DNA of 64,000 nucleotides from an uncultured Methanosarcinales archaeon. GTDB taxonomy: Archaea; Nanobdellota; Nanobdellia; Woesearchaeales; CAYSVS01. Positions within the stretch are counted from its first letter, which is position 1. Each line of letters starts with the position of its first letter. The notes under the pieces were generated by a model. The model had not been told where the DNA came from, searched no databases, and was given only the letters and a program-made list of their open reading frames with translations. Position numbers and translations under genes: made by a program. Below are positions 29,288 through 61,005 of this stretch, in pieces. The stretch is taken from the NCBI GenBank assembly GCA_964434475.1, contig CAYSVS010000001.1, forward strand, positions 22,820 to 86,819, written 5' to 3'.

Positions 29288-32200
29288 TTGAGGGGAAAGA
29301 GAGGATTTAGTAGAGTAAGATTATTGTTGTTAGTTTTTGTTATTTTAGCTATGTCTTCTTATGCTTTGCCTTCTTTTATATCTATCTGGGATGATACTGA
29401 TCTAGGTAAAGTTATGTATCCTTATAATATGACTTATTTCTATGCTAATTATACTAATTCAACTGGGGACGTAATAACGGGCATGACTCCAGTTTGTAAC
29501 ATAACCATTATAAATACAGAAGGTCCAGGTATAGCGGGTCCTATCCCTATGCAGTATAATGCTGTATCTTTTTTATATGAATACAATAACACTTTTGATG
29601 ATGAAGGTTTGATGTTTGGACCAGGCATACATGATTGGAACGTTAGTTGTGCTTATGATCTTTATGATTATAATTCTAGCTCAGATACTGTAAATATTTC
29701 AGGAGATATGGATGAGATTTTCATAGAAAAATACGCCTTAAATGGAACGGTGTATGAAGATGAGATTGTTACATTCATCCTGAATGTAACGAATTTTGGC
29801 ATGGAAAATTATACAGACTTGTTTTTGGTTGATGAGTTCAACATCAGTTATCTAAATTTTAGTGCATCTACAACTTACCCTGTAAATATTATTCCTGAAG
29901 TTAACTATACTTCTGGAGAAGTTGAATGGATGCTTAATTTAAGCGTAGGCCATTCTTTTGTTGCATTAGTGAATTTCACAGCACTTCAAACAGGCAACAC
30001 AACAAACTATGTTTATGTTAAAAACGATACAGAATATTTTGGAGGAGATTTTGAGGAGATTGAAATCTTGTGGGAAGAAGAGCTTTGTAATCTTGATTTT
30101 AGCAATGTTTCATGCATTTCAAGAGAACCTTGGTGTTCCTGGAATGAAGACTATTGGAATCCTTTTACCCAAGAAGATGGATATTGTATGCCTAATTGTT
30201 CTTTGTTGACAGTAGAGGATTGTCAAGATTATCCTTATGAATGCAATTGGAACGGAAGCAGTTGTAATGATCTAGATTGTTATAGTATAGGCATTGAATC
30301 AGAATGTGGCCAGTATGATCAATGTTATTGGGATTTTGAAGAAAGTGATTGCGATCCTAATTGCACCTACTTTAACTATGATAATCCTGAGTTTAATGAG
30401 TCAAGCGACAATATATTTGAGAATGCAAGTATTTGGTGTATGAAAGCTGATTGCGATTGGAATGGAAGCTATTGTATTGAAGATGAAGAAGAGATAAATA
30501 TTTCTGTAAATAAAATTTTGTTGGACTCCAACATCTATCCTGGAGATACTGTTCAGTTTATGATAAACATAACCAATGTTGGAGATAGTGGCTTGGTTAA
30601 TATCTGGGGTTATGATGACTATAATGATACTTTTATGAATTTTACAGGCATAAGCTGCGGATATATGGCTCATGGTTCAAGATGGGTGCAGATTAATTTT
30701 ACTCAATGTGTTGGTGGTGGTTTGCCACCAGGAGAATCTGTTGCTGCATATATTAACTTTACTGCATTAGAATCAGGCAGTACTTTTAACAATGTCAGCG
30801 TTAATGCAACAGATTTTGATATGAATAATATACTTGAATCTGACCAGATAGATTTCGGGATCTTGGGCGGAGAAGAAGGAAGCGAAGCACCTTGTAATAT
30901 TGAGAATGAAACACAGTGTTTTATGAGAAGCGAGTGTATCTGGGATGACATGATGCATAATCCTTTAACTGATAGCAATGGTTATTGTCAGACCAATTGT
31001 TCTTTGTTGACAGTAGAGGATTGTCAAGATTATCCTTATGAATGCAATTGGAACGGAAGCAGTTGTAATGATCTAGATTGTTATAGTATAGGCATTGAAT
31101 CAGAATGTGGCCAGTATGATCAATGTTATTGGGATTTTGAAGAAAGTGATTGCGATCCTAATTGCACCTACTTTAACTATGATAATCCTGAGTTTAATGA
31201 GTCAAGCGACAATATATTTGAGAATGCAAGTATTTGGTGTATGAAAGCTGATTGCGATTGGAATGGAAGCTATTGTATTGAAGATGAAGAAGAGATAAAT
31301 ATTTCTGTAAATAAAATTTTGTTGGACTCCAACATCTATCCTGGAGATACTGTTCAGTTTATGATAAACATAACCAATGTTGGAGATAGTGGCTTGGTTA
31401 ATATCTGGGGTTATGATGACTATAATGATACTTTTATGAATTTTACAGGCATAAGCTGCGGATATATGGCTCATGGTTCAAGATGGGTGCAGATTAATTT
31501 TACTCAATGTGTTGGTGGTGGTTTGCCACCAGGAGAATCTGTTGCTGCATATATTAACTTTACTGCATTAGAATCAGGCAGTACTTTTAACAATGTCAGC
31601 GTTAATGCAACAGATTTTGATATGAATAATATACTTGAATCTGACCAGATAGATTTCGCAATCTTGGGTGGAGAAGAAGATGAAGATAATGTAACTATAA
31701 ACAAGACAGTTATAACCCCGAGTGTTGAAGACGGAAGTATAGCATCATTTATGATAACAGTTAATAACAACGAACCATATAATATTACAAATTATGAAGT
31801 ATATGATTTCTTCAATACTAGTATGATCAATTATACTGCTGCAAGTTATACGCCCGAGGATATTAATTATACTATGGGTAGAGTTATCTGGGTAATCAAT
31901 AATCTTGAGAATTACAGCTCTTTTTCATTCAATGTGAATTTTTCAACATTTATAGAAGGAAATACTACAAATTATGTTGTCCTGAAGAACAGCACAGGAA
32001 ATCATGTTGCGGATGATAACGCAAGTTTAGAGATAACCTTATTTGAGGAAGAAGATGAAGGAATGTATGATTTTGGAGATGCGCCTGACTCTTGCAACCA
32101 TTTCGGAACAGATATGGAGACAGATCCTAGTATGTTTACCAGCGATATAATTGCAAATTATCCTACAGTACATAACATAACCTTAAAAGATAATTGCGGA

Positions 32201-38200: not shown

Positions 38201-41200
38201 CCTAACTTAACAGGAATACATGCAGAGCTTACATTCTATAATATCACTGGATTATATGGCATCAATACTCCGCAAGTTATCAAACAGGCGTTTGGTGGAG
38301 GAGCAGTACAACAAGTGTATGTTTCTGGTCAATTTAGTTTTGATCCTGGAACTGGAAATCTTATATTGCCGATAACTTCCTTTTCACAATATACTGTTCA
38401 GGAAGCACCAGAAGAATTGATTGAAAACGCAACAATAACAAAAACTTTGCTTAATGGTCCTTTAACTGTTGGAGATACAGCGGTGTTTATGATAAATGTA
38501 ACCAACACAGGCACAGTTAACTTTACTGAATTTGAGATAAGAGACTCTTGGAATTCTTCTCATATCAATTACACAGCTTCTGCAAGTCCGGACTATTGCG
38601 TATTTGATGAAGTTAATTATACTGACAGTGAAGCATTCTGGCTGCTTAACCTTAGTGTTGGAGATAGCGCATTGCTTTACGTAAACTTTACAACACTTGC
38701 AACTGGAAATACAACAAACGAGATTGACATAGAGAATTCAACAGGCGGTGATATGGCATATGACGATGAAGATATTGAGATTACTTCTGGACAGCAGCCT
38801 ATAAATGTAACTTTGATATATCCGACAAATGGTTTGATTTTGAATGAAAGTTCATTTAATTTAAATTATAGCGTTAACATAGAATCTAATTGCACTTTGT
38901 ATATTAATAATTCAGGAAATTGGACTCCTTACGAAAGTAATGTACACTTGGGAAATTGGAGTGTTGATATGAACTTAGTTGATGGAAATTATATGTGGAA
39001 TGTATACTGCTTTGATGTCAACAATATCTCAAACAATGCTTGGGCTGAAACAAGTAATTTTACTTTTGTTGTTAATGCATATTCTAGAGATTTTTATGAA
39101 ATTGATGATAACTACACTTTAGCTAATTGGATAACAACAGACAATGTTCCGCAACATCATACTTTTAATCCAGTAAATGACAGCGATTGGTTTAAGTTCA
39201 ATACGACTGCACATAATGAATATACAATTGAAACATATAATCTAAGCGGAGGAGCAGATACAATGTTGTTATTGTATGATTCTGATGGGCAGACATATCT
39301 GACTTATGATGACGATTCTGGACCAGGGTATGGTTCTATTTTAAGATTTAAGGAAGAGGAGAATAAGACATATTATGTTTTGGTTGATGATTATTGGTCA
39401 TCAGGAAACTCTTATAATAATGCAACCTATTCAGTTAAGGTGAATTCATCAGCCATATCTAATGTAGGTAGTTATGATAGTTATGAATATGATGATTATG
39501 CTTGGCAGGCGAATGTTTTAGTACCAAATGGCACAGCGCAAAGCCATAACTTTTATCCTGCTGGTGATGAAGATTGGGTTGAGATTAATATGAGTGCGGG
39601 AGCTAGTTATGTGATTGAGACTGGTAATTTAGCTAATGGTGCTGATACTTATATGTTCTTGTATGGTCCTAATGGAAACTTGTTTGCATATAATGATGAT
39701 GTTGATTCAGGTATCATAATAAGTTCAAAAATAGAATGGACTGCAAACGAATCAGGATTGCATTATCTTAAAGTAAGGGATTATGATACTGGAGCTTCAG
39801 GAGGAACTTATGATATATCTGCAACCTATGGACCTAGTATAAATAATATGTTGTGTCATAATGGGACTGGCTGGACATCATGCAGTAATATTTTATATGG
39901 GACTAACTTTTCAAGCGTAAAAGCTAATTGTACATATCCTGCTGGAATCAAGAATGTGACTTTTAGTCTATTAAATGTTGATGATAATAATTATTTCTTT
40001 ACAGAAGAGCAATACACATCAAACACAACAGACTTTTATGAGTATGACATGGGTGATATAGATGTTGATGATTCGGGAGAATGGAATATTATAGTGGAGT
40101 GTACTGCTTCTGATGGTACTTCAACAAATTATACTGAATCTTGGGGGATTGAATGGGGTAAATTATCTACTTATCTTATTGAACCAACAGATAGTATTAA
40201 TATGTTGAAATATAACCTTACAAATATTTCAACAGGTGTAACTTGTACTGGAGGAGAATGTCAAGACATAACTGCGACATTGGATCCTAAGCCAGTGTAT
40301 GTTGATCCTGTGGTTGAAAGTCTAGTTCAAGAATCAGAGCAATATTCTTTGTTTGTTGATCAAAATAAAAAACAAAGTAAAGTGGATAAAATAGAATCGG
40401 ATGCTGTAATTTCAAAACAAAAAAATACATACGCGCCAGAAGAAAAAAGCGTAGAAGAGATGCTTGACGAACAGGGAGAAGTTCCTGTGATAGTTGTATT
40501 GAAAGATGAGGATATTGAGACTGTTGAATCAAAAGGTCAATTATCTTCTTTAGATATTAAAGGACAGTCATGGGAGAATAAAAAAGAGATGATAAAACAG
40601 CAGCAGGATAAAGTGCTTTCAACATTGTCAACAGAGGATAAGAAAACTAAATTCTTGTTCTGGACCATTAAATCAGAAGAGAAAGAGTTTAATCTTAAGA
40701 GAAAGTATGGATTGACAAATGCATTCTCTGGTAAAGTAACTAAATCAGCTTATGAAAAACTAAAGAATAATCCTGATGTTAAATCAGTGCATTATGATAA
40801 GATTGAAAAAATATTGCTTCATGAGTCTGTTCCGCTGATTGAAGCAGACGAGGTTTGGAACTTGCAGTATAATGGAAACAACATAACTGGCAGTGGTGAA
40901 ACAGTTTGTGTGATAGATACTGGAGTTGATTATAATCATGCTGATCTAGGCGGATGCTTTGGAGCAGGATGTAAAGTATTGGGAGGATATGATTTTTATA
41001 ATGATGATGCTAATCCTATGGATGATCATAATGACATAGTAACTGGTCAAGGTCATGGAACTCATTGCGCTGGAATAGTTGCAAGCACCAATTCAGTATA
41101 TACTGGTGTAGCACCTGGTGCAAATATTATTGCTATGAAAGCATGCGATTCAGGTGGTTCTTGCTCGTCATCAGATATATTATCTGGAATTGAATGGTGT

Positions 41201-44566: not shown

Positions 44567-44571
44567 GGAAG

Positions 44572-45219: not shown

Positions 45220-45343
45220 TTACTTATATCGGGCTGATATATTATCGATAAAAAGACATACAACAAATAACAACATTTATAAATGGTACGCGATTTAATC
45301 TTTATTTAATAATGTTAAAACATTATAAAGGGAGGGTTTGAAT

Positions 45344-48300: not shown

Positions 48301-50602
48301 AGCAGGAAATGTTGGAACCAGCTCAAGAGTAATCAAGATAGATACAGTAAAGCCAAGCACAACATTGACATATAATAATACTGATGCAGAAACAACTTGG
48401 GTTAATACTCCTGTAAATATCACTATAACAGCAACAGATGTAAATTCAGGTGTCAATTATACACAATGGAGAAATTCAACATCCGGCTCATGGATAACTG
48501 TTGAAGGAAGCTTTGTATTGTCAAACAATTTGACTGACAATATTATATATTATAGGTCAGTTGACAATGCGACAAACACTGAGACAATCAAACAGAAAGA
48601 TTTCTACTATGATGGAACAGCTCCTGTTGCGCCTTCGATAACATTAAGCTCAGATACTGTGGGATTGGGCGGAAGTGTTGTAGTTGATGTAACTAGTTCA
48701 GATCTTTTGTCAGGATTAGCTTCAACAGCTGATTATGAGATAAATGGTTCAACTGGAACTTTAGATTATTCGAACGGAAAATATTCTGGAACAGTAACAG
48801 CTCCAGCAATAGCAGGAACATATAATTTGACAATCACAGTAAGTGATGAAGCAGGAAATACTGTAAGTGATGCAAATTCTCAGATAACTACAAACGGTAC
48901 AGTAGCTTCAATCAGTGTAAATAAGGCTAATGGAACTGTTGTAGAAAGCGGAAGCACAGTTACGATTACTATCGATGGCGATAATGCAACCGGTTGGTAT
49001 AATTATACTGGTGGATCAGAAACGAATATTTCTGGAACTTCAGCATCAGTTACAATATCTGGCACAGGATTGTTTAATCTGTATGTGTATGCGAACAATA
49101 CAGCAGGATTGGTAAATCAAAACTATACTTATGTTATTGATGCAGATGCGCCTTTAACAACTGTTACAGCTCCTACAGCAGGTTCAGAGATTAACGCAAC
49201 AGATACAATAACAGCAACAGCAGACGATCAAACTGGAATTGGTGTTGAAAATGTTGTTTTCACTGTAACTAAAGTAGGAAGCACAACTGCTTATAAAACA
49301 TTTACAGATACAACATCGCCATATACATTTACATTAGATACTTTTGCAGCAAAAGACGGTAATTATAGTATAGAAGCTGTAGCAACAGACTACTTTAGCA
49401 ATAGCAATACATCAACAATCTATGTGGTGATAAATAACACAGGAGTATCGACTACAACAAATGCAGACGCATCTGGTGAGGTTGATTTTTCAGCAACAGA
49501 TTTTGCTACAGTATTGGATGTGATTACAGGATTGAATGATAGTGTTAATGTAGTGGTTTCAGTTCCACAAAGTGTTGCTAATGCTCCAAGTACAACGACG
49601 CAATTAGAGGAAACAATACACACTTTAAATATCACAACAGATACGCCAGCAACATCAAGAGTTTATTTTACTATTTTGACAACTACATTGGATGATTTGA
49701 GCATAACTTCTCCATACTCTAATCTGTATGTTTATGTAGATCATGGAAGTGGAGTAGAAGAAATAGGTGCAGCAACATTTGTTGATACAGTAACAAAGAA
49801 CGGTAATGAGTATAAGAGATTCTATTTTGAAACCGATGAATACAGTACATTTTTCATAGGTAAGAAAGCTGTAGTGGTACAAGAAGATGATGAAGAAACT
49901 TCAACCACTGGCGGAACAACAGGCGGGTTAAGCACACTATCAACAGCAAAAGGAATATCTGTGACTCATATGTGGAATGTTATCAAGCCTTCTATTCCAA
50001 GTTCGATGAGTATAACAAACGATGATATAGCATTCAGGAAAGTTGTATTCACTGTAACTGAAGAATCTCAAAATGTAAGGATGGAGATAACATCTTTGGC
50101 AGAAAAGCCAGAAACAACTGTTGAGATTATTGAACCTGTATTCCAGTATCTTGAAGTTGATACTACTAACCTTGATGATGTCAATATCAAATCAGCAAAG
50201 ATAAGCTTTGAGATCAAGAAATCGTGGTTGAACGGTAACAATAAAGAAAGCGTAAGGCTTTTAAGGTTCAGTGATGGCAAGTGGAATGAACTGACTACAG
50301 AATTGACCAATGAAGATGGCACTTATGTTTATTATGAAGCAACTACGCCTGGTTTCAGCTATTTTGCGATAGTGTCTAAAAAGATAGCAGAAGAGCCTGT
50401 AGAGACTGTGCCAACAGAAGAAGTTGAAGAAGAGGTTGAGGTTGAAGAGGAAGAAGAAGCTGCTCCTGAAACCAAGCCAATCGAAGCTCCTGTAACAGAA
50501 GAAGGAATGAAAGGCTGGTTTATAGTGATTGTGTTGGTTGTAATCGGTGTAGCAGCTTATTATTGGTACAACAAGCCAAAGAAAAGGAAGAATAAAAAAT
50601 AG
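45344..50602 (+). CDS. Large T/N-rich secreted surface protein (about 1752 aa) with C-terminal TM anchor and basic tail
   Basis: The probable start is the ATG at 45344, 8 nt after an AGGGAGGG SD; the track opens at 45338. Signal peptide MRKAILLFTMLILSSVLVSAVP. Many Ig/fibronectin-like T-rich repeats with dense sequons. Acidic linker, then GWFIVIVLVVIGVAAYYWYNKPKKRKNKK at the C-terminus. A PGFSYFAIV motif lies ~60 aa before the TM. Confidence 0.8.
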   Translation: MRKAILLFTMLILSSVLVSAVPINYDGYVKSPIGIGIPTMNVSVYNTAAGYSGTRQQWKVTSANPASLGRFTGSYMTDDGATNADIIRIYSYNESNLALGYAFLLTNLANVTSSNHGNLTINRSFYPLFTNVASPQNDTEYATQNINFTFTVQDDVTEDFEEDMSCAFYLGYGTSPSLNTTNTTVDSGDTVTFVKTALLDGGYNWYINCTNNRSVSNVTSVYEFDIDTKAPRYDQIQVSGSIVNISDNVNIWANWTDTFLDSAVLIVNDTDNETKDISMSDMNWNLTNFTFTPASSFVKQNITFNIRANDTLGNLNTTTNAYVYFRDDVKPDVVLINPANQSSKSSTSITFNYSYSDNVAGNLNCSLYLDMGYNESQTVAATTTMQYGAFAKTVEDNDDHEWYVVCVDSDGNSNITPTNEFTVDSSAPIVNLNETQSSTVNQGDKIHYWANWTYGINQIDVAILYVNGQMANMTYSVGSNNLVNLSYTTNNNQAGSTLSLYMWVNDTAGLEANSGIITVGVNDTIAPSVVPNLPIDNYNTSSLTMNWSAIVTDNNVAPNISCNISVAGNINHIGSGFTNGSIVSTGDQTVPTGVNLWNFTCWDQAGNTATSATRTLNVDRQASLVFAQGYNDSTVGLTKSILVYANVTDNFLGIKNVSIKYGSNAPVAMTPTGDTYSVATTAGALGISTTDNHSVTIIAYDTVNNVNNTEVIYIDVDASMPIVHTVLANETYVKSTDLINFSAFVNDTSLVSVTLNGTNMTGDMVNGGIFYTINSTSDFGCEDIEGTCTFFVSASDTVGNVNDTESVTVTVDDIAPRVTSFSVVDADNMVMNTTSVVVRANITDASVASVTVNGTAMSQSGDYYQVTTTMAALGCAPDGECTLGITATDAAGNINSTETTTITVDTTAPTMNLTYPGNNTWRKVTTPKLNYSFVDAYSDNASCTLSINSVDFTSTVNNDTQKQVYVTGASLSSGSTYTWTVACTDLAGNVGTSSRVIKIDTVKPSTTLTYNNTDAETTWVNTPVNITITATDVNSGVNYTQWRNSTSGSWITVEGSFVLSNNLTDNIIYYRSVDNATNTETIKQKDFYYDGTAPVAPSITLSSDTVGLGGSVVVDVTSSDLLSGLASTADYEINGSTGTLDYSNGKYSGTVTAPAIAGTYNLTITVSDEAGNTVSDANSQITTNGTVASISVNKANGTVVESGSTVTITIDGDNATGWYNYTGGSETNISGTSASVTISGTGLFNLYVYANNTAGLVNQNYTYVIDADAPLTTVTAPTAGSEINATDTITATADDQTGIGVENVVFTVTKVGSTTAYKTFTDTTSPYTFTLDTFAAKDGNYSIEAVATDYFSNSNTSTIYVVINNTGVSTTTNADASGEVDFSATDFATVLDVITGLNDSVNVVVSVPQSVANAPSTTTQLEETIHTLNITTDTPATSRVYFTILTTTLDDLSITSPYSNLYVYVDHGSGVEEIGAATFVDTVTKNGNEYKRFYFETDEYSTFFIGKKAVVVQEDDEETSTTGGTTGGLSTLSTAKGISVTHMWNVIKPSIPSSMSITNDDIAFRKVVFTVTEESQNVRMEITSLAEKPETTVEIIEPVFQYLEVDTTNLDDVNIKSAKISFEIKKSWLNGNNKESVRLLRFSDGKWNELTTELTNEDGTYVYYEATTPGFSYFAIVSKKIAEEPVETVPTEEVEEEVEVEEEEEAAPETKPIEAPVTEEGMKGWFIVIVLVVIGVAAYYWYNKPKKRKNKK

Positions 50603-50687: not shown

Positions 50688-51551
50688 TTATATTATTTTT
50701 AAACTAGCATAACCCACAGCGTTCTTATAATCTTTTGTGATGTCTCCTGATGTATAATAGTTCAAAAGTTTAGCTTTTTCAGCGCCTATTCTTTTTGCTG
50801 TAGCCAATAGCGCAGCAATAGCTTTACTGCCGCAGATTGTCGCTTGTTTATCTTTGACATATTTAAGAAAATTCTTGTCATCAAGCTTGTTGATAAAGCT
50901 TATGGCTTCTCTATCTAGATTATATAAGTGTTCTTTTATATCTTTATTAAATGGTATATATCCATAATTAGGTCCATAATGGGTGAAATCAGATGATGCG
51001 ATTAATGCTGCATCATATTTTGTTTTTTTCAAAGCTTTTGTTAAAGAAAAAGCCAGATCTTTATGAGGACAGTCATGGCTTACGCTTATCGGAACAATCC
51101 TTATTTTACTTTGTTTATCCTTGCAGGCAAACTGCAGGAATGGTAGCTGAACTTCTATACTGTGCTCTTCTTGATGCGCCATAGGTCTATCTTCGAGTAT
51201 AGAATTATTTGTTAGATAATTGACAAACTTCTTATGACATTTTACTGTGCCTAAAGGTGTTTTCCAGTCTTCTGTCAATGTTGCTGTATTGCCTAATCCG
51301 GTATGGTTGGTGCCAAGTATTATGAAAACATCAGGCATTTTAGATTCTGCAATCTCTTTGTATGCATATGCTTGGCATATTCCTGAATAAGCATAACCAG
51401 CATGAGGAGCTATGATGCCCAATGTTTTTTTTTGTGATCTTTTGCCAGGCATCCCAGGACCTTTTTCAAAACACTCTTCTATCTGTCTATTTAATGATTT
51501 TTGAGTATCTTCATAGAACATTCCTGAAACAATAGGTTGTCTTGTCATCAT
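50688..51551 (-). CDS. MEMO1-family protein (AmmeMemoRadiSam system protein B)
   Basis: TLGIIAPHAGYAYSG and HSIE...DFTHYG motifs of the Memo-like family. 287 aa. Confidence 0.7.
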   Translation of the reverse strand: MMTRQPIVSGMFYEDTQKSLNRQIEECFEKGPGMPGKRSQKKTLGIIAPHAGYAYSGICQAYAYKEIAESKMPDVFIILGTNHTGLGNTATLTEDWKTPLGTVKCHKKFVNYLTNNSILEDRPMAHQEEHSIEVQLPFLQFACKDKQSKIRIVPISVSHDCPHKDLAFSLTKALKKTKYDAALIASSDFTHYGPNYGYIPFNKDIKEHLYNLDREAISFINKLDDKNFLKYVKDKQATICGSKAIAALLATAKRIGAEKAKLLNYYTSGDITKDYKNAVGYASLKII

Positions 51552-51936: not shown

Positions 51937-51993
51937 CTTTTATTCTTATTATTGACAATCTCGCTCGCTGTATTTTCTGTGATATTCAAATAT

Positions 51994-52174: not shown

Positions 52175-52212
52175 AATGTTATTTTTATTATGATGGTTTA
52201 TTTATATCTACC

Positions 52213-53142
52213 TTATTCAGTCAATCCTTCGCAATCATAGATAGATATATGTTCTTGGTCAAGTCTGAACCATATAGGTAATCCTTGTATATTGTAGTAT
52301 TTAGGGTTTAGATCAGAGAAATATATGTAATCTACCACTGACTTTTCTTCAATATTTATGTTATTATTTACAAGATTCTCAATATTCACTAGGCTTTCTA
52401 TCCCCTTATCATTTGCAGTTGTTTTTCCTTCTAACCTGTCAAGATAGCTTGGCCCTAAATCTGATGCTATGTAGTGTTGGCTTAGTGTATGATTCAATAG
52501 TTTTTCTGTTTTGTTATTTTCAATAAAATTGGAGTATGGGCTTTTTTTGATTATATTTGGAACTTTGCCTAACGTATTAATAGAGTATAAAGGATCTTCT
52601 AATCCTTTTATGCTTATTTTGCTTTTGATTGTTTTATTGTATCTGAATTCTGCAATATCACTTTTGTCTTTTAATTCTATATCTGCTTTTAATCTTATTT
52701 CAACGAACCAAGGATCGGTTTGATATATATCTATAGAGATTATGCTTATATTTGAGATAATATTCATATAATCTGCTTTTTCTTTTACTTTGTTAAGCCA
52801 TAGTGCTAGATTGGTATTGTTCATCATCCGAGATTCTTGCCCGTCTAATGTGCTGTTTATGAACAGTTCTTTAAAATCTTTATTGACATTGTCACTGAAT
52901 TCTCTTTTTTCTACTATGTTATCTGTTATTGATGTTAATGCTCTTGAACCTATTATTTCAGATGCTCTTTCTATGTCTCTTTCGAAATCTTCAATAAAGT
53001 AGTTCATTGTATTGACTCTTTTTTTGATAAGATCTCTATCTTTATCTTTTTCTTCGTTTAATGTAAAAGCTGTTAGCAGGAGTGAAACCAGTAAAATTGT
53101 GCTTACTGTAAAAAACATTGCTTTTTTATTTTTTAATGCCAT
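52213..53142 (-). CDS. Pilin-like protein (309 aa) with type IV pilin-type N-terminus
   Basis: N-terminus MALKNKKAMFFTVSTILLVSLLLTAF (basic residues then a hydrophobic helix). Last gene of the minus-strand pilin operon. Confidence 0.5.
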   Translation of the reverse strand: MALKNKKAMFFTVSTILLVSLLLTAFTLNEEKDKDRDLIKKRVNTMNYFIEDFERDIERASEIIGSRALTSITDNIVEKREFSDNVNKDFKELFINSTLDGQESRMMNNTNLALWLNKVKEKADYMNIISNISIISIDIYQTDPWFVEIRLKADIELKDKSDIAEFRYNKTIKSKISIKGLEDPLYSINTLGKVPNIIKKSPYSNFIENNKTEKLLNHTLSQHYIASDLGPSYLDRLEGKTTANDKGIESLVNIENLVNNNINIEEKSVVDYIYFSDLNPKYYNIQGLPIWFRLDQEHISIYDCEGLTE

Positions 53143-55742
53143 ATTCTAACCTCTGCTTTAGTAGGGCCTATCAGATAAGGTATGTTGCCTATATCTATCT
53201 GGTTTACGTTTATGTTCAAGTTTTGTATATTAAGATATAGCAATCCGTCATCATCAAAATCTAATGTTTTGAAAAATTCATATGTTGCAACATCTGTTGC
53301 ATCTTTTCTGTCATAAGATTTTTCCTTGAAATAGCAGTCTTTATCTCCTTTGTAATCATTAGGTATTTTTATTTCTGTTTCTTCACCATCTTCAAATTCC
53401 AGATGCCATCTACATCCTTCGCTTTTTGGCAGAACTTCAGTATATCTTATCTGCGGATAATATATTAAGTCATAGATTAATCTGCTTTTTTCCGGAATCT
53501 TGTTTTTTGATGATGTGCCTATATTAAGTGTAATCTGGTTATCTTCTTCTTTTTCTATATATTTTGTAGGTATGTTTATATGGAATGGATCGCCTAGTTC
53601 TGAATAAGGTAAATTATATGTGTCAATGTCATAAGTATCTATGTCATAGTTTGAGTTTTTTATGTTAGCAGTTTTTGTCCAATAGTCTTTTGAATATGAT
53701 GTTAAAGTTAGCTGTGTTATATCCATTTCTTCGGGTATGTATATACTGGAATTAGAGCTGAAAGGAGGCGTTTCTATGTTGAATAGTATTCCTTCTGGAT
53801 TTTTTTCTTCTTGATTTATTATCTCTATGTATGAATCAGGATATAATGCTGTTGGTTCATAACTGAAGTTTGTCTGGATTGTTTGTTTATTATAACTGAT
53901 ATTTGCTATGCTTTCTGCTATAGACTCATATATTTCGCTTAATTGTGAAGCATTGCTCGCGTCAAAATACTTGCCTTCATTACATGCCATCTGGCTTAAT
54001 GTAGATGCGTCTGCACTTTCTCCAAATCCTACTGTGTAGACGCTTATGTCTTCATCGCATGCTTCTTGTGCAGCTCTTATCGCATCTGTCTTTCCGTTTC
54101 CGCTTCCTCCATAGCATCTTATGTTTGCTTCTCCATCACTCATAACGACAATAAACCTTTTGTTTGTGCTTGATCCTATATTTTCCATGGCTCTTATTAT
54201 TCCGCAGCATATACAAGTTCCGTACCAAGAGTCCATATTATTTATGTGTTCTTTTAGTGTATTTATGTTATTGGTAAGATGAATCTCTCCTACTATTCCT
54301 TCAGGAAATTCTACGATATCCTGGCCACAAGGTTGTTCTACATAGCTTGAATAGTAAGGATATTCTGCGCTATATTCTACCAATCCTATGTTGTTGTTTT
54401 CATTTTCGAGTATGTTATCTATAAAATCAGTGGAAGCTTTTTTAGCAACGTCTATCCTTCTCTCTGCTTCATCTCTGCATTTTCCTGTCCTTATCCATTT
54501 ATATCCGCATGCATCTTGTCCTGCTTTATCAGGATAATTGAAATGCTGCTGCCATCTCCAATTTGTCATATAATCGTCTGGTTCGTTTATACAATATTCC
54601 ATACTGCCTGAGAGGTCGCTTGCCAGGATAACATCAGCAAATTCCTGATCTTGTGTTGTGATGTTCTTTATGCTTAATCTTATAGGCAATGTAGTGTAGC
54701 TGATATCTTCATAGTTAAATATGGTTTGCAGTTCGTTATCATCTATTATTATTGTTTTTTCTCCTTTTGGATTATCTTCATATACTGTCTTATTTCCTAT
54801 TCTCAGATATGTGTCATATGTGCTGTTTATATGGAGTTTGATATTCATCCCTTTGATATCTTTTGTATTTATGCCTGAATAATAATTTATGAAGCCTTTG
54901 ATGCCTTTGAAATATTGTTTTGTCTCAGTATCTGGTTTGAAAAATATGTCTGAAACATTGTAGCTTATCTGGAAAAACCCTCCTGCGATGTATCCTTTAT
55001 TCTGGAATTTAATTTCTATGGTGTTGTTTCCTTTTGTTATTAAATCTAGTTTGTCTTCTGGAACCTGGTAGTAAAAATCTTCTTTTTCACACTCTTTGGC
55101 AAGATATTTGTTTATGTACAGTTCAAAATCTTGATCAGTATCAAATTCAAAATCTGCTGATTTTATAGTATCTGCATTCATAGGAATTCTTATATTGAAT
55201 GTTATGTTTCCATTGCCTATGTATCCTCCAAAATATTCTCTCTTGTTTTGTGTATAATCCTTTATCTCTGTCATAGAAGATCTTGCGATATAACCTTTTA
55301 TGCTTTTGTTTTTCATTATTCCGGTTATATGTCTTGTTCCTGAGATAAGTTGTTTTGGGGTTTTTTCAGATGTAGAATATATCTTTTCCTCTTCTAAAAA
55401 AAATCCATAATCCATCTGCGGAGGTATGATGTTTTTTGAGATGTTCTTAAAAATGTTTTTCGCGATATTTTCTCTATTTGTAGACCAAAATATTACTGTC
55501 TGTTCCAATACAGAATTATCTGTTTCGGTAATTATCTTATCCTCTATAAGTTTGTTTATATACTCATTGTTTGTCTCGTTTATTTTCATCATAGACAAGC
55601 TGTTTATCATATCCTGTGAGTAGAATTCAAGTTGAGATTTTGGATTCTCATGTATATTGAAGCTTGTTAATGCTGTTATACTTATCATTATCAATGTAAG
55701 TGCAAAGATTCCGTCTGCTGTGAAAAACTGGGCTTTTTTCAT
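53133..55742 (-). CDS. Large pilin-like protein with von Willebrand factor A domain (candidate pilus-tip adhesin)
   Basis: N-terminus MKKAQFFTADGIFALTLIMISITAL. vWA MIDAS motifs ILASDLSGSMEY, FIVVMSDGEANI, VYTVGFGESAD at roughly 53970..54620. 869 aa. Confidence 0.65.
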   Translation of the reverse strand: MKKAQFFTADGIFALTLIMISITALTSFNIHENPKSQLEFYSQDMINSLSMMKINETNNEYINKLIEDKIITETDNSVLEQTVIFWSTNRENIAKNIFKNISKNIIPPQMDYGFFLEEEKIYSTSEKTPKQLISGTRHITGIMKNKSIKGYIARSSMTEIKDYTQNKREYFGGYIGNGNITFNIRIPMNADTIKSADFEFDTDQDFELYINKYLAKECEKEDFYYQVPEDKLDLITKGNNTIEIKFQNKGYIAGGFFQISYNVSDIFFKPDTETKQYFKGIKGFINYYSGINTKDIKGMNIKLHINSTYDTYLRIGNKTVYEDNPKGEKTIIIDDNELQTIFNYEDISYTTLPIRLSIKNITTQDQEFADVILASDLSGSMEYCINEPDDYMTNWRWQQHFNYPDKAGQDACGYKWIRTGKCRDEAERRIDVAKKASTDFIDNILENENNNIGLVEYSAEYPYYSSYVEQPCGQDIVEFPEGIVGEIHLTNNINTLKEHINNMDSWYGTCICCGIIRAMENIGSSTNKRFIVVMSDGEANIRCYGGSGNGKTDAIRAAQEACDEDISVYTVGFGESADASTLSQMACNEGKYFDASNASQLSEIYESIAESIANISYNKQTIQTNFSYEPTALYPDSYIEIINQEEKNPEGILFNIETPPFSSNSSIYIPEEMDITQLTLTSYSKDYWTKTANIKNSNYDIDTYDIDTYNLPYSELGDPFHINIPTKYIEKEEDNQITLNIGTSSKNKIPEKSRLIYDLIYYPQIRYTEVLPKSEGCRWHLEFEDGEETEIKIPNDYKGDKDCYFKEKSYDRKDATDVATYEFFKTLDFDDDGLLYLNIQNLNINVNQIDIGNIPYLIGPTKAEVRIWH

Positions 55743-56203
55743 TTCCAGACATACACCCCTATGTTGATCAGATCCTTATCTAATATGCCTATCCTTTCAA
55801 TCTTAACCAGCTCTGTGGTTTCATCATAATCCTCTATTCCATTTATCTTTTCAGTTTCATTATCTTTTGATAGATATATGTAGAAATCAAATTTCATGTT
55901 AGTGATGTTTTTTAATCTGTTGTATTTAATATTTTTTAAGTACTTTAATTTTGTTTTGTTAATCTCATTATCCAGTATTCCTATCTGTTCTATGTTTTCT
56001 GTATTCCAATGTTCAGGATAACCTGTATCCATCAACATTTCAGATAGTCTTATTGCTTCGTTCTCAATTATGTTTACTGATTTCAGGCCTGAATCATAAT
56101 TATAGAAAAATATTGCTGCAACTAATGTAAAGAGCATCAATCCTATCATGAAATCGATGTAAAAAACCTGTGCTTTCTTATTGATTAATGATGACTTTTC
56201 CAT
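55739..56203 (-). CDS. Pilin-like protein (154 aa)
   Basis: N-terminus NKKAQVFYIDFMIGLMLFTLVAAIFF, a class III signal peptide-like sequence. Confidence 0.5.
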   Translation of the reverse strand: MEKSSLINKKAQVFYIDFMIGLMLFTLVAAIFFYNYDSGLKSVNIIENEAIRLSEMLMDTGYPEHWNTENIEQIGILDNEINKTKLKYLKNIKYNRLKNITNMKFDFYIYLSKDNETEKINGIEDYDETTELVKIERIGILDKDLINIGVYVWK

Positions 56204-56576
56204 TTTTTTTCTCTATCTTGTTTATCCCTTTTTCTAGCTCTCCTGTGAATCCTGCCAGTTTGATTTCCTGTTCAAGATTATTATCTAGGGTAACTATCAA
56301 ATATTCTGAGATTACTATAAAATTATATTCGTGATTGTCTATCTTTTCAGGTATTCTAAAATATCTTGTATATCCTTGTTTTGAATTTCTTGCTATATTT
56401 ATCTCCTGGTAAATATTATATGAAAAATCCTGTAATGCTTTATATTGCTTTTTTTGTTCTATGTCTTTGAACTGGCTATAGGTGAATGTTGAGAAAGTTA
56501 TAAGAATTAAGAATCCTACCGCTATCAACATCATGAATTCCATAGAGATCTGAGCTTTTTTTAACCGCTTATCCAT
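56178..56576 (-). CDS. Archaeal type IV pilin-like protein (DUF361-type class III signal peptide)
   Basis: N-terminus LKKAQISMEFMMLIAVGFLIL fits the QxSxExxxL motif of EppA/PibD-processed pilins. 132 aa. Confidence 0.6.
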   Translation of the reverse strand: MDKRLKKAQISMEFMMLIAVGFLILITFSTFTYSQFKDIEQKKQYKALQDFSYNIYQEINIARNSKQGYTRYFRIPEKIDNHEYNFIVISEYLIVTLDNNLEQEIKLAGFTGELEKGINKIEKKNGKVIINQ

Positions 56577-56968
56577 ACATAGTCTCCTCTAGATTCTATG
56601 CTGATTATATGCATACCTTCTTTTTCGTCGATGCTGCCCTGGAGATTGGCTTCAGAAAAGAATTCCATGTCGCTGATTCCTGCGTCTGTTTTTATCCTAA
56701 AGTTTATCTCGTTCTTCGATATTATTATATTATCTATGTTTTTAGGAAAGTTTATCTCTAATGTTGTTTTTGAAGGTTTTCCGTGGTAGTAAACTTCTTG
56801 TGCTGAGTTCACTATTGTAGTACCTATCTTATTTATGTGTTCTGAAATAATAGTATCTTCTGCTGTGGCAGAATACGATATGTATATGATGGTCAATGGT
56901 ATTATCAGTGCCATCGCTATCCCTACTAATAACAGATATTCCATGCTTGACTGAGACTTTTTCAACAT
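56561..56968 (-). CDS. Archaeal type IV pilin-like protein (DUF361-type class III signal peptide)
   Basis: N-terminus MLKKSQSSMEYLLLVGIAMALII is a perfect QxSxExxxL motif. First gene of the five-gene minus-strand pilin operon. Confidence 0.65.
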   Translation of the reverse strand: MLKKSQSSMEYLLLVGIAMALIIPLTIIYISYSATAEDTIISEHINKIGTTIVNSAQEVYYHGKPSKTTLEINFPKNIDNIIISKNEINFRIKTDAGISDMEFFSEANLQGSIDEKEGMHIISIESRGDYVWISG

Positions 56969-57058
56969 ATATTATAAATCTTATAGATTAGTATAAAAAG
57001 AATTGTAACCATTTTAAAATTAAAACACACATTTAAAAAGCTTAGTTGTTTAGTATTT

Positions 57059-57664
57059 TTGAATAGAGGGATAGTAATGAAAAAAAGGGGTGCAACTAAA
57101 AGTAGAAAGCATAATGCTAGTCATAAAAAGAAAGATAATATGCGAAAATCAAAAAAACCTACAAAAGTTTCTCTAAAAAGAAAACCTAAACCAAGTTCTA
57201 AAAAATCAATTACTAAATCAAGAAAGGAAACTAAAAAGCTAATAAATAAATCCCGGAAAAAGGTCAAAAAAAGTTTTAACAAGAACAAGGGAAAAAAATC
57301 AAAAGCTTCTGAAAAAGAGACAAAAAAACGTTCTGGGAAACGTTTATCTAATCGCAAAAGCAAAAAATCATCTAAACCATCTAAAAATTTCAACAGTCAA
57401 TACAAAAAACCTAAACACGCAAAAAAAAAGAGATCTAAGGTTATTAAGATAGATCTTTCTCATCTTGGAGCATATGAAACTGAACTCGATAAATTATTGG
57501 AGGAAGTGAACGAAAGAGAGAAAATAAGTGTAAGGCAGGTTGCAAAAGCTTTTGAAGTGCCTAAATCATTGGTAGAATATTGGGCAAGAATTTTAGAGCA
57601 GAAAGGATTGATCACTTTGCATTATCCATTGATAGGAAGTCCTAAATTGAGGAAGAAAAGATGA
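57059..57664 (+). CDS. Highly lysine-rich basic protein with C-terminal HTH-like domain (putative DNA-binding regulator)
   Basis: ~150 aa of K/S/R-rich low-complexity sequence, then SVRQVAKAFEVPKSLVEYWARILEQKGLITLHY. First gene of the plus-strand pilus assembly operon; its stop overlaps the ATPase start. Confidence 0.4.
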   Translation: MNRGIVMKKRGATKSRKHNASHKKKDNMRKSKKPTKVSLKRKPKPSSKKSITKSRKETKKLINKSRKKVKKSFNKNKGKKSKASEKETKKRSGKRLSNRKSKKSSKPSKNFNSQYKKPKHAKKKRSKVIKIDLSHLGAYETELDKLLEEVNEREKISVRQVAKAFEVPKSLVEYWARILEQKGLITLHYPLIGSPKLRKKR

Positions 57665-59157
57665 ATGTTGTCGAAGAGTATAAGGTTAATATTGATGATG
57701 TTGATGTGAAGGTAAAGATATTAGGCGGAAAAGGACACGCATTAAATTATAATCTTCAGTTAAAGGAGTTTAAGCCAGCAACAAAAGCTTTTATCGACGA
57801 GATAAGGGACGAGCTTGTACATCATGTAAAACTGAGCAGTTTTGAGATACTTGATTCTAAGGCGATAGCTGTTATCAAGAATAGGTTCAGGCAGAAAGCG
57901 AACGAATTAATTGAAAAAAAGCTTCCCCATGTTTCAATCAAAACTAGAAAGTATATAGTAGGATATCTTATACACGAGATGCTTGGGCTTGGTAAACTCG
58001 AGTTGTTGTTGGGAGATGAACATCTTGAAGAGATTGTAGTTAATTCATCTAAAGAGCCTTTGTATGTTTATCATAAGAAATACAAATGGCTTCAGACCAA
58101 TGTGAATATACCTCAAGAATCAAGTATACTTAATTTTTCAAATATAATTGCAAGAAGGGTAGGAAGACAGATAAATACTATGAATCCTTTGCTTGATGCT
58201 CATTTGGTATCAGGAGACAGGGCTAATGCTGTATTGTATCCTGTATCAAACAAAGGCAACCTTATAACTATAAGAAAATTTGCAAGAGACCCGTGGACTG
58301 TTGTTGAGTTTGTCAAGAATGGGACATGCAGCCCTTATATATTTGCATTACTCTGGACTGCTATCCAGTATGAAATGAATATACTTATCAGTGGAGGAAC
58401 AGCAGCAGGAAAGACCTCTATGCTCAATGTTCTTAGCGCTTTTTTTCCTCCTGCACAACGTATCATAAGTATAGAAGATACAAGGGAGATACAACTCCCT
58501 GAATTCTTGCATTGGGTTCCTTTGACCGCAAGGATAGAGAACACAGAAGGAAAAGGTTCTGTGTCTATGCTTGATCTGTTGATAAACTCTTTACGTATGC
58601 GTCCGGATAGGCTGATAGTGGGAGAAATGAGAAGAAAAAGGGAAGCTGAGGTCCTGTTCGAGGGTATGAATACAGGACATAGTGTTTATGCTACAATACA
58701 TGCAGACTCTGTTCAGCAGACAGTAAGAAGGCTTATCAATCCTCCAATAGAGTTGCCTGAACTTTTGCTTGAATCTTTGAACCTTAACGTTGTAATGTTC
58801 AGGGACAGGAAGACAGGTAAAAGGGTTATGCACCAGATAGGAGAGTTTATGGTAAAAGGAGGAAATGATGCTTATATAGAGCCGAACATACTTTACGAGT
58901 GGGATCCAAAGACAAAGAAACAAAGATTGATGCATAAAAGCTCAAGGTTATTCAAGGAATTGTCAAAACATACAGGGATGACTGTAAAAAGGCTTGAAAA
59001 AGAGATAAAGGATAAACAGAAGATAATAAAATGGATGGTCAATAAAAATGTAAAGGGCGTTAACGAGGTAGGAAAGATAGTCAAGGAGTATTATCTTAAT
59101 CATGATGCTCTTATGAAATTTGTCAACGCAAACAAAGATCCGAATACACTAAAATGA
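57661..59157 (+). CDS. Type IV pilus/archaellum-type assembly ATPase (FlaI/TadA/VirB11 superfamily)
   Basis: Walker A ISGGTAAGKTSML, Asp box IISIEDTREIQL, Walker B RPDRLIVGEMRRKREA, His box NTGHSVYATIHADS. Confidence 0.8.
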   Translation: MNVVEEYKVNIDDVDVKVKILGGKGHALNYNLQLKEFKPATKAFIDEIRDELVHHVKLSSFEILDSKAIAVIKNRFRQKANELIEKKLPHVSIKTRKYIVGYLIHEMLGLGKLELLLGDEHLEEIVVNSSKEPLYVYHKKYKWLQTNVNIPQESSILNFSNIIARRVGRQINTMNPLLDAHLVSGDRANAVLYPVSNKGNLITIRKFARDPWTVVEFVKNGTCSPYIFALLWTAIQYEMNILISGGTAAGKTSMLNVLSAFFPPAQRIISIEDTREIQLPEFLHWVPLTARIENTEGKGSVSMLDLLINSLRMRPDRLIVGEMRRKREAEVLFEGMNTGHSVYATIHADSVQQTVRRLINPPIELPELLLESLNLNVVMFRDRKTGKRVMHQIGEFMVKGGNDAYIEPNILYEWDPKTKKQRLMHKSSRLFKELSKHTGMTVKRLEKEIKDKQKIIKWMVNKNVKGVNEVGKIVKEYYLNHDALMKFVNANKDPNTLK

Positions 59158-60053
59158 ACAGATTAAATTTTTTTCTTTTGCCTGAAAGGATATTGAAAAG
59201 GTTTAGTCATTTATTTTTAGGCATAAGTGAAAAGATAGAAGGAAGCTTCAATTCTCTTGAACTGGACCTTAAACAATCAGAAATAAGGATAAATAAGATA
59301 GATTATATCTCTTATTCTCTTGCTTCGTCTTTTATCTTGTTTATCTTGTTGTTTTTGCTTTTTGCAGGATTGTTTGAATATTTTGGGCATAAGAATTATA
59401 TCTTTCTTTCTGTATTATCTTCCTTTTTTCTGATATTTCTTAATTTTTTAAGGATATTGAACTATCCTAGATTCATCACAAACAGAAGAGTGAAAAATAT
59501 TGAAAAGGATTTGTTGATAGTGTTGAGAAATATGTATGTGCAGGTAAAGTCCAACATACCTTTGTTCACTGTGATGGTAAATGTGGCGGGACAGGATTTT
59601 GGAGAGGTAAGCAAGGAATTCAAACGTATGGTAAAACAGATAAACTCAGGCATTTCTGAAGTAAAAGCTTTAGAGGAATCAGCTACAAACACACCTTCTG
59701 CTTTTTTCAGGACAGTATTATGGCAGATAATAAATGGGGTAAAGACAGGGGCAGATATATCTGTTGTTTTGAAAGATCTTATAGAGATGCTTTCAGGAGA
59801 ACAGGTTGATCAGATACAGGAATATGGAGCTTCGCTTAATTCACTTGCTTTATTTTATATGCTTTTAGTGATAATAATGCCTTCTTTAGCGATAACCTTT
59901 TTGATAGCTTCATCAGTATTTTTTTCAAAAGCGATTGTCACGACAAAAGCCTTGTTTTGGCTCTTGTATGTTCTGGTTGTTCTGTTCCAGATAATATTTT
60001 TAGGTATAATAAAATCAAAAAGACCTAGTTTGTTGAGGGATGAAAATGTATGA
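59154..60053 (+). CDS. TadB/GspF-like pilus platform membrane protein (single T2SSF-like domain)
   Basis: 299 aa polytopic membrane protein with a soluble helical insert between TM segments. Translationally coupled to the ATPase and to the next gene. Confidence 0.5.
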   Translation: MNRLNFFLLPERILKRFSHLFLGISEKIEGSFNSLELDLKQSEIRINKIDYISYSLASSFILFILLFLLFAGLFEYFGHKNYIFLSVLSSFFLIFLNFLRILNYPRFITNRRVKNIEKDLLIVLRNMYVQVKSNIPLFTVMVNVAGQDFGEVSKEFKRMVKQINSGISEVKALEESATNTPSAFFRTVLWQIINGVKTGADISVVLKDLIEMLSGEQVDQIQEYGASLNSLALFYMLLVIIMPSLAITFLIASSVFFSKAIVTTKALFWLLYVLVVLFQIIFLGIIKSKRPSLLRDENV

Positions 60054-61005
60054 TTTCATAGGGAGACTGTTTCCTGTATCTGTAAGGAAGAATATAGGTC
60101 AATTGTTGATGTATTCTGATATTGATATAGATACAGAGAGATATATAGGTTTTACTTTTTTGTTTGATATAGCTTTAAGTATTGTAATTACATTATTTCT
60201 AGGACTGTTTTTCAAATTCAATATGCTTATTGTATCTTTATTGTTTTTTGTATTGTTCGATATGATAAGCTATTTTACGCTCCATTTCAAAGCACAGTCA
60301 AAGTCGAAGTTTATTGAATCTATACTTCCTGATGCTTTAAGGCTTACAGCAGGCAACCTTAAGGCAGGAATAACTACAGATAAAGCTTTGCTTTTAAGCG
60401 CCAGACCTGAGTTTGGGCCTTTTAAAAAAGAGTTAATAAGGGCTGGAAAAGAGATAGCTACAGGAAAAGAGATAACCAAGTCTTTGATGGATATAACACA
60501 AAGAGTGAGGTCAGTGAAACTGAAACATGTTATTGAGCTTATTGTTTCTGGATTAAAGACAGGAGGTCAATTAAGCGATCTGCTGCAGCAAACAGCAGAA
60601 GATCTTACAAGGCAGAAACTTATCGAAAGAAAGATAAGGACAAACGTAAAGCTTTATGTCATATTTATATCTATAGCTATAGCTTTTGCGTCTCCTGTTT
60701 TATATGCTTTAAGCACTTTCCTATTGGAAGTTATGGCTGCAAAATTAGCTGCTATAGATCCTAGCGTTTTTTCTTTGATACAGTTTAGCACAGGTAAGAT
60801 GCTGGAGATAAGCTTTGTTACACGATATATAGTTATATCTATAGCGACTACTGTCGTACTGGGTTCTCTTGTGCTTGGACAGATAAGTAAAGGAGATGAA
60901 AAACAAGGAATAAAGAAGATACCTTTCTTGATACTTATTTCTTATGTACTTTTTTTCGTTGTGCTCTTATTTTTGAGAAGAATATTCGGTATGTTCTTGA
61001 TATAA
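60040..61005 (+). CDS. TadC/GspF-like pilus platform membrane protein (second half of a split FlaJ/TadC)
   Basis: 321 aa polytopic membrane protein. Position and topology are consistent with the second T2SSF domain. Confidence 0.5.
   Translation: MKMYDFIGRLFPVSVRKNIGQLLMYSDIDIDTERYIGFTFLFDIALSIVITLFLGLFFKFNMLIVSLLFFVLFDMISYFTLHFKAQSKSKFIESILPDALRLTAGNLKAGITTDKALLLSARPEFGPFKKELIRAGKEIATGKEITKSLMDITQRVRSVKLKHVIELIVSGLKTGGQLSDLLQQTAEDLTRQKLIERKIRTNVKLYVIFISIAIAFASPVLYALSTFLLEVMAAKLAAIDPSVFSLIQFSTGKMLEISFVTRYIVISIATTVVLGSLVLGQISKGDEKQGIKKIPFLILISYVLFFVVLLFLRRIFGMFLI

Follow-up and report, generated by a model that had tools for sequence, protein, structure and literature searches.

The window analysed here comprises 64,000 nucleotides (nt) of contig CAYSVS010000001.1, assembled from an uncultured archaeon, and the Logan assembly of SRR7048224 contains the same DNA. 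Between positions 29288 and 61005 it encodes a giant secreted protein of 5092 amino acids (aa), two smaller surface proteins with membrane anchors and, beyond a Memo-like gene on the opposite strand, five type IV pilins, a pilus assembly ATPase and two platform proteins (Table 1). A sequence-only reading of this region had taken it for a single attachment island of a small archaeon, in which two giant adhesin-like proteins are followed by a divergent type IV pilus locus. The open reading frames (ORFs) on which that reading was built are all present in our ORF map, the giant being identical to the NCBI-sourced protein P0121 and of the same length, and the host is indeed a DPANN archaeon. It is Woesearchaeota-like both by its flanking genes, which encode archaeal aIF5B, aRF1, aIF5A and AglB/STT3 as well as HerA and an M50 protease, and by the best named matches of its ATPase, which come from Woesearchaeota and Nanoarchaeota; its DPANN lifestyle we infer from taxonomy only.

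The region is, we think with some confidence, best described as two neighbouring and genetically independent surface modules, namely a conserved split-platform DPANN pilus and a lineage-specific surface-protein operon. The pilus module (52213-61005) consists of two divergently transcribed operons, which are taken to be translationally coupled since the genes within each overlap by 4-26 nt, and the spacer between them is presumed to hold a bidirectional promoter. To follow its conservation, an alignment of the ATPase was run against a genome set holding a single representative of each GTDB species; 79 loci with ATPase identities of 44-57% came out, distributed over Woese-, Pace-, Aenigmat-, Micr-, Iain-, Nanohalo- and Altiarchaeota, and their ORFs were called and labelled by phmmer against the window proteins. 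A recognisable ATPase ORF was found in 76 of the 79 loci. Among these 76, 58 have both half-size platform genes, in 49 the ATPase is immediately preceded by a winged helix-turn-helix (wHTH) gene, 47 have one or more pilin homologues and 17 have all five pilins, all of these counts being lower bounds because many of the contigs are short. Wherever all five pilins are present their order, pil135-pil132-pil154-pil869-pil309, is constant, examples being found in Woesearchaeota (L008, L010, L014, L030, L035, L039), Aenigmatarchaeota (L038, L065) and Micrarchaeota (L077, L080), and the same cassette in the same order is seen in Woese-, Pace-, Aenigmat- and Micrarchaeota. The pilin genes are either divergent from the ATPase operon, as in the window, or collinear with it, and in some loci (L028, L029, L034, L036) the last three of them have been relocated together and now directly follow the platform genes; pil154, pil869 and pil309 are always adjacent and in the same order. 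By this comparison the pilus cassette is an old, conserved DPANN unit, and the recurrence of all five pilin families with their signal motifs in dozens of independent DPANN loci means that the pilins are not chance ORFs.

The surface-protein genes are rarely found in such company. A homologue of the giant, of the 215-aa protein or of the 1754-aa protein occurs near the pilus genes in just one of the 79 loci (L014, a partial match of pre-PGF type), and a non-pilin ORF of at least 1000 aa lies within 10 kb in eight of them (9 ORFs in 1.13 Mb), so that 71 loci have none. Likewise no pilus ATPase was found within 10 kb of three other giant loci (P0123, P0129, P0133), each of which has a second giant in a same-strand tandem. 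Furthermore, the atypical GC content or codon usage that might have marked an island is not seen, as GC is flat across the window (0.29-0.365, in a genome of 32% GC), the GC content at third codon positions of the region's genes is 0.22-0.31 versus 0.28 in the flanks, and their distances in relative synonymous codon usage are in the range covered by the housekeeping genes. No integrase, transposase or other mobility domain was detected in any domain scan of the window ORFs, and the sole tRNA (Pro, 20828-20904), the only hit in an Rfam scan of the window, lies 8 kb upstream of the region. Horizontal acquisition of the region as an island was accordingly rejected, given its native composition, the absence of mobility genes and the lack of an adjacent tRNA. 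The surface-protein genes do precede the pilus locus as originally described, but not directly, since the Memo-like gene and a 125-aa ORF intervene.

Because surface genes are scattered in relatives, the composition is native and an opposite-strand Memo gene lies between the modules, the notion of an island acting as a unit is not supported. Rather we conclude from gene content and order that the pilus cassette is a conserved unit and that the surface-protein operon (29288-50602) is a lineage-specific, apparently fast-evolving and hypervariable one, while their adjacency, seen only in the closest relative L086, would be a local and recent arrangement and not a conserved, co-inherited island. 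Comparison with L086 is in agreement with this, since identity to the window falls from 73% for the ATPase and 59% for platform protein A to 38-56% for the pilins and 34% for the neighbouring surface protein, the last over a 143-aa pre-PGF stretch only, a gradient which shows that diversification rises from the machinery through the pilins to the coat proteins.

The competing view that the whole 32 kb forms one functional attachment island, with giant fibres and pili co-inherited and co-regulated for host interaction, is in our opinion unlikely. It is true that every product is predicted either to be extracellular or to belong to the pilus, and that KaiC-like genes of the sort found after the platform genes in L004 precede a giant gene in L089, but the giant is without an orthologue, which comes on top of the distribution, the composition and the intervening gene described above. 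Several observations nonetheless weigh against a strict division into two modules or against a pilus that is complete as it stands. In L086 only 2 nt separate the pil309 homologue from the end of a different PGF-pre-PGF protein with a transmembrane (TM) anchor, a Memo gene being absent between the two, and in L010, L017 and L034 large secreted NosD/beta-helix proteins, one of them with an M12 metalloprotease domain, are encoded within 10 kb of the pilus genes. This linkage leaves room for a loose functional association of surface proteins and pilus, and an attachment theme is indeed plausible, even if it does not take the form of a conserved island. By a rough reckoning, the density of nine large ORFs in 1.13 Mb is about what may be expected anywhere in such genomes. 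As to the pilus itself, no A24 prepilin peptidase was matched by any window ORF scanned (64 kb), and a crude screen for the motif G.[GAS]D[..][KR] combined with TM segments in the window and 85 loci likewise gave none, which is a weak negative only; since there is no peptidase in the window or beside any related locus, prepilin processing is assumed. In Methanococcus, moreover, the gene of the major Epd pilin lies away from the locus, and by analogy with M. maripaludis a short major pilin could be encoded elsewhere.

Table 1. Features of the region 29288-61005, with coordinates in the window.
Feature	Coordinates	Strand	Basis or remark
Giant secreted multidomain protein, 5092 aa	29288-44566	+	ORF map, domain scans
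In-frame tandem duplication inside the giant gene, 801-nt period	30194-31658	+	30194-30857 exactly identical to 30995-31658 (664 nt)
Inhibitor_I9 propeptide (aa 3735-3839) then Peptidase_S8 (aa 3868-4117), ~3,700 aa into the giant	40490-41638	+	Domain scan
215-aa protein, N-terminal signal and C-terminal TM (aa 188-206)	44572-45219	+	Starts 5 nt past the stop of the giant
Immunoglobulin (Ig)-rich surface protein, 1754 aa from TTG, 1752 aa from ATG at 45344	45338-50602	+	ORF map, domains
Memo-like gene	50688-51551	-	Pfam scan; separates surface-protein genes from pilin genes
pil309, 309-aa pilin	52213-53142	-	ORF map, signal motif, model
pil869, modular type IV pilin, class III-like signal KKA|QFFTADG	53133-55742	-	VWA E 2.1e-10
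pil154, minor-pilin-like, signal KKA|QVFYIDF	55739-56203	-	Family consensus [KR][GA]Q.W..D
pil132, candidate filament subunit, signal KKA|QISMEFMML	56178-56576	-	Exact QxSxExxxL; family consistently ~130 aa
pil135, candidate filament subunit, signal KKS|QSSMEYLLL	56561-56968	-	Exact QxSxExxxL; first gene of pilin operon
AT-rich divergent spacer, 108 nt	56969-57076	.	Between pilin and ATPase operons
Lys-rich wHTH-like protein, 195 aa (201 aa from TTG at 57059)	57077-57664	+	Heads ATPase operon; stop overlaps ATPase start by 4 nt
Pilus assembly ATPase, 498 aa, T2SSE / GspE2-FlaI-CpaF class, PilB3_C tail	57661-59157	+	PF00437 E 2.7e-30
Platform protein A, 299 aa, single T2SSF domain (half of TadB/TadC-like split platform)	59154-60053	+	PF00482
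Platform protein B, 321 aa, single T2SSF domain	60040-61005	+	PF00482

The five minus-strand pilin ORFs (52213-56968; 135, 132, 154, 869 and 309 aa) each have a K/R-G/A site followed by one N-terminal hydrophobic helix, and the earlier description of two of them as carrying exact class III signals (QSSMEYLLL and QISMEFMML) and of one as an 869-aa protein with a von Willebrand factor A (vWA) domain was borne out. Each family has a signal motif of its own, namely [KR][GA]Q.S.EY for pil135, [KR][GA]Q...EF for pil132, [KR][GA]Q.W..D for pil154, [KR][GA].FF..DAL for pil869 and KKG.FFT for pil309, and the QxSxExxxL motif, the EppA-type signal, is kept in 46 sequences of the pil135 family and 27 of the pil132 family. 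A match of pil132 to PF04021 (DUF361; E 0.0026, 18.1 bits) stays under the cut-off of 23.7. N-glycosylation sequons are absent from both pil135 and pil132 and occur at 1.5-1.9 per 100 aa in the three larger pilins, and because they are confined to the latter, a filament whose body is free of glycans and whose tip complex is glycosylated is suggested.

The AlphaFold model of the largest pilin, pil869 (predicted local distance difference test score, pLDDT, 84.2), starts with an N-terminal helix (aa 2-29) and places the vWA domain (aa ~369-616) between beta-sandwich domains and C-terminal beta domains. The residues of its metal ion-dependent adhesion site (MIDAS), D376, S378, S380, T509 and D536, are invariant in an alignment of 56 homologues, and the fold of the vWA domain is closest to those of the pilus-tip adhesins Mfa5, SpaC and Streptococcus sanguinis PilB, with PitA, RrgA and GBS104 matching too. 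About 96 homologues were found, mostly of 810-930 aa and ~30% identical over the full length; the fullest annotation that any of them carries is "VWA domain-containing protein", and in some lineages a LamG domain is present additionally or instead. For S. sanguinis PilB the status of a modular type IV pilin has been established by experiment, host proteins being bound by its vWA module (PMC8179133). Like PilB, pil869 combines an N-terminal class III signal and alpha-1 helix with a vWA module that has a complete MIDAS (DxSxS...T...D), and is predicted to reside at the tip and to act as an adhesin. It differs from PilB in being archaeal, in its length of 869 versus ~420 aa, in its extra beta-sandwich domains before and after the vWA domain, and in belonging to a fixed trio with pil154 and pil309. 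We regard pil869 as an archaeal counterpart of the bacterial modular pilins and as a predicted adhesin; a literature search returned no paper linking DPANN, von Willebrand domains and pili in the sense of modular pilins. The last member of the trio, pil309, was modelled with AlphaFold2 at a pLDDT of 96.2 and has an N-terminal helix of 78 residues (aa 2-79). An exhaustive search assigned 1071 cluster representatives at 50% identity to its family, nearly all of them ~300-330 aa long, and the family matches no Pfam or NCBIfam entry.

The claim of an ATPase and a split platform was confirmed in the form of one T2SSE and two single-T2SSF ORFs, and with them the divergent type IV pilus locus has all of its parts except the peptidase. 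The ATPase matches PDB entry 2oap (E 7e-67), FlaI and CpaF, and is 44-57% identical to its counterparts across DPANN phyla, 54-58% to its best named relatives from Woesearchaeota and Nanoarchaeota and 73-74% to those on two ENA contigs. Both platform ORFs match PF00482 (E 1.3e-14 and 5e-13) and have 5-6 hydrophobic segments. The wHTH protein consists of a low-complexity, disordered N-terminal part rich in lysine and arginine (35% K+R) and a conserved C-terminal wHTH-like domain of ~65 aa with the consensus ...LD.LY.L.KEKK...LS.IAK.F.V....AEEWAKILEEH.L..I.YP.FGEP..., which matches no Pfam family above threshold, a MarR match being weak (E 0.0014). No KaiC/FlaH-like secondary ATPase is found among the window ORFs; in 18 related loci, however, a KaiC-like ORF is found no more than two genes away from the platform genes (PF06745 in L005).

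Two adjacent single-T2SSF platform genes together with QxSxExxxL pilins characterise the Epd-like clade from which the bacterial Tad pili arose, as described by Denise et al. (PMC6668835), and the same features are given for System 1 of methanogens, Thermococcales and DPANN in a 2026 survey, which also reports two-platform variants of subsystem 4A in some DPANN (bioRxiv 10.64898/2026.04.22.720090). What may have looked like a peculiarity of this locus, the split platform accompanied by QxSxE pilins, is consequently a normal hallmark of a known class. With Epd/System 1 and its bacterial derivative Tad (TadA, TadB/TadC, TadE/F/G) the present system has in common a platform split into two adjacent single-T2SSF genes, pilins with the class III motif, an ATPase related to CpaF, FlaI and GspE2, and several minor pilins including a vWA-bearing one, which may be compared to TadG (PMC4858521). 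However, its candidate filament pilins are of 132-135 aa with a globular part, as opposed to the short Flp/EpdE-like subunits, its gene order runs from ATPase to platform with a Lys-rich wHTH gene at the head, and it lacks both the adjacent KaiC/FlaH-like ATPase and the dedicated peptidase in the locus of the Methanococcus Epd system. By gene features only, the pilus seems to fit the known split-platform class, System 1 or Epd-like and Tad-related, subsystem 4A being the alternative label. It adds to this class of archaeal type IV pili, and the finding is real and largely ordinary.

The open frame of the giant, 15.3 kb in a genome of 32% GC, is not due to chance, and its product has a single hydrophobic segment (aa 6-24), resembling a Sec-type signal, and no C-terminal anchor. 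Its domains comprise DUF11 arrays, GEVED, CarboxypepD_reg, a NosD-like beta-helix (aa ~2244-2419) and two PPC domains, followed by the I9 propeptide, the S8 subtilase, 4-5 cadherin-like/tandem-95 repeats and two C-terminal repeats of ~100 aa. It had been described as adhesin-like, and it is indeed giant, secreted and sequon-rich, but it is not only adhesin-like, since it has a subtilase (E 2.9e-49) that is intact in its catalytic triad D3877/H3923/S4085 and seems to be active. As the I9 propeptide directly precedes this intact subtilase, autoprocessing is suggested, and the giant is probably cleaved into an N-terminal fragment of ~3,700 aa and a protease-cadherin fragment. It contains 258 N-X-S/T sequons, or 5.07 per 100 aa versus ~0.4 in the cytoplasmic proteins of the window. 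The 664-nt duplication within its gene covers a Cys-rich segment and a DUF11-like domain, and may have arisen very recently by expansion, if it is not an artefact of the assembly. Among 5.8 billion proteins no full-length homologue was found other than the giant itself, nor a second instance of its domain combination (DUF11 array, beta-helix, PPC, I9-S8, tandem-95); the best partial matches, one at 35% identity and the other to a protein with S8 and beta-helix domains, cover 18% and 9% of its length, respectively.

The two genes that follow encode, as originally noted, a small anchored secreted protein and a large TM-anchored one. The former, of 215 aa, has no family match in the domain scans and is possibly a membrane partner of the giant. 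The latter, for which 1752 aa had been given and which is 1754 aa long from the TTG start, has Big_13, Big_7 and PKD domains, a PGF-pre-PGF domain (aa 1560-1679) that matches TIGR04213 at E 5.8e-24 and 84.8 bits against a cut-off of 28, an acidic linker, and a TM segment (aa 1721-1739) with a basic tail, which together identify it as an archaeal surface glycoprotein of the PGF-pre-PGF kind; its 80 sequons correspond to 4.56 per 100 aa. A regular expression for class III signals flagged both the giant and this protein, but both were judged to be of Sec type, the giant because charged residues follow the site and the 1754-aa protein because of its C-terminal anchor. In the upstream flank, AglB/STT3 (1226-4384, plus strand; PF02516, E 5.7e-40) is fused at its C-terminus to a PPIC-type peptidyl-prolyl isomerase (E 2.6e-28), a fusion through which a single polypeptide would both N-glycosylate exported proteins and assist in their folding, and which is worth mentioning given the 338 sequons of the two large surface proteins.

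In its size of ~5,000 aa, its serine protease region, its many adhesion-type domains and its presumed part in host interaction the giant resembles SPEARE, a DPANN surface protein of Nanohaloarchaeota (PMC6642349). An assignment as SPEARE was rejected, however, as the giant does not have the C-terminal TM segment and cytoplasmic type III restriction-enzyme domain that are the defining and most conserved part of SPEARE; no nuclease or ResIII match was obtained from Pfam or NCBIfam, and no laminin-G or BC-toxin-like region was detected in it. Other giants of Woesearchaeota and Nanoarchaeia (P0122-P0147; DUF2341/CARDB/Big_13, 4,000-7,000 aa) are of the same size class and taxon and have DUF11, beta-helix/NosD, Big_13 and cadherin-like domains in common with it, but they are different mosaics, with no match covering more than 18% of the window giant. 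They too occur in same-strand tandems with further large genes. Such tandems are found in L087 (10001-26580; 3049 and more than 2478 aa), in L089 (10001-37427; 5808, 718 and more than 3079 aa), where KaiC-like genes lie upstream, and in L090 (10001-33551; 4516, 1457 and more than 3245 aa), which has a 1306-aa DUF87/HerA-CarboxypepD_reg fusion just upstream. All three tandems mirror the 5092, 215 and 1754 aa of the window.

If the region is made up of two modules as we propose, a prepilin peptidase encoded elsewhere would cut the five prepilins after K/R-G/A, and the filament would be built from pil135 and/or pil132 by an ATPase hexamer acting on a heterodimeric platform, to which each of the half-size T2SSF proteins contributes one subunit. 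The trio of pil154, pil869 and pil309 would most likely act together in priming or at the tip, where the vWA module with its MIDAS would be displayed as an adhesin, in a manner comparable to S. sanguinis PilB or to the complexes that minor pilins form in bacterial type IV pili and the type II secretion system, and the Lys-rich wHTH protein, whose translation is coupled to that of the ATPase, may be a conserved accessory protein or a regulator. The giant would be exported by Sec, receive its N-glycans from AglB and process itself, and a non-covalent attachment, in which the 215-aa protein possibly takes part, would keep it at the surface, while the Ig-rich PGF-pre-PGF protein would be anchored by its C-terminal TM segment, and both modules may contribute to contact with a host or a substrate. 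A further-reaching idea, which we offer as speculation and regard as unlikely, is that the five-pilin cassette represents an uncharacterised DPANN-wide pilus architecture, with two QxSxE pilins, a fixed trio and a wHTH gene at its head, whose tip presents a hypervariable vWA/LamG adhesin that sets host specificity, and beside which variable giant beta-helix or protease surface proteins are recurrently recruited (window, L086, L010, L017, L034) as a second, lineage-specific layer of host contact.

The literature already routinely presents the pili and giant surface proteins of DPANN as their presumed apparatus for host interaction (for example PMC6642349, PMC6142677). Roles unrelated to symbiosis have to be considered as well, the pilus then serving in generic adhesion, biofilm formation or DNA uptake and the giant as a nutritional protease or an S-layer-associated coat. 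Precedents for this exist in the Epd pili of free-living Methanococcus, which attach to surfaces (PMC6668835; bioRxiv 10.64898/2026.04.22.720090), and furthermore the combination of S8, PPC and I9 is a common layout of secreted degradative proteases, and the PGF-pre-PGF type is generic among the surface glycoproteins of archaea. A giant of such extreme size, mosaic in build and unique, is however a better fit to diversifying selection of the interaction type than to housekeeping nutrition, and the steep divergence gradient of the pilins likewise favours such selection, so that we find purely non-symbiotic roles improbable. It is very improbable indeed that the machinery is a pseudopilus akin to type II secretion which, instead of or besides acting as an adhesive pilus, exports or presents the giant protease-adhesin, for although type IV filament systems have repeatedly been turned into secretion systems (PMC6668835), secretion of a matrix protein in association with type IV pili is reported for Clostridium perfringens (PMC11580942) and the giant lacks an anchor of its own, it has an ordinary Sec-type signal in an archaeon without an outer membrane to cross, the cassette is conserved in ~80 loci without such neighbours, and the vWA modular pilin points to adhesion.

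The reading as two modules matters because DPANN are mostly uncultured and their ways of recognising and holding a host have been deduced mainly from pili and giant surface proteins. The conserved and tractable part consists of the pilus cassette common to several DPANN phyla, the modular pilin with its MIDAS and the uncharacterised pil309 family of ~300-aa proteins (~1,000 cluster representatives), whereas the lineage-specific part is the giant protease-bearing protein unique to this organism. The most useful leads are the five-pilin cassette and the pil309 family. Defined targets for antibodies, electron cryotomography and AlphaFold-multimer are available from the analysis, and adjacency of genes within a single metagenome-assembled genome should not be read as an island.

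Some further features of the window should be mentioned. Upstream of the HerA/DUF87 ATPase (14631-16634) the minus strand carries three Lys-rich ORFs of 354, 473 and 277 aa (8706-12939), which have no signal peptides and no family match except a sub-threshold one of the 354-aa ORF to DUF6263. The minus-strand ORFs beside this ATPase (8706-14336) were considered as a second, pilus-like or Ced-like system, but this was rejected as they have no class III signals, and several of them are housekeeping-type PUA or DUF371 proteins. In the gap that separates platform gene B from a purF-like gene there is a tandem repeat (61162-61417) with the 42-nt unit GTATATTGGTTGATGGTCACGAACTGTTGACATAAATAGATT in 6.1 head-to-tail copies matching at 90%; it is not CRISPR-like, since there are no spacers, and the Logan contigs L001 and L088, which cover the region, both break at it. 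Downstream of it, on the plus strand (63120-63878), this archaeon encodes a homologue of the bacterial prolipoprotein diacylglyceryl transferase Lgt (PF01790, E 2.6e-56), and in the relative L002, with an ATPase identity of 74%, Lgt is found directly after the platform genes (4004-4780).

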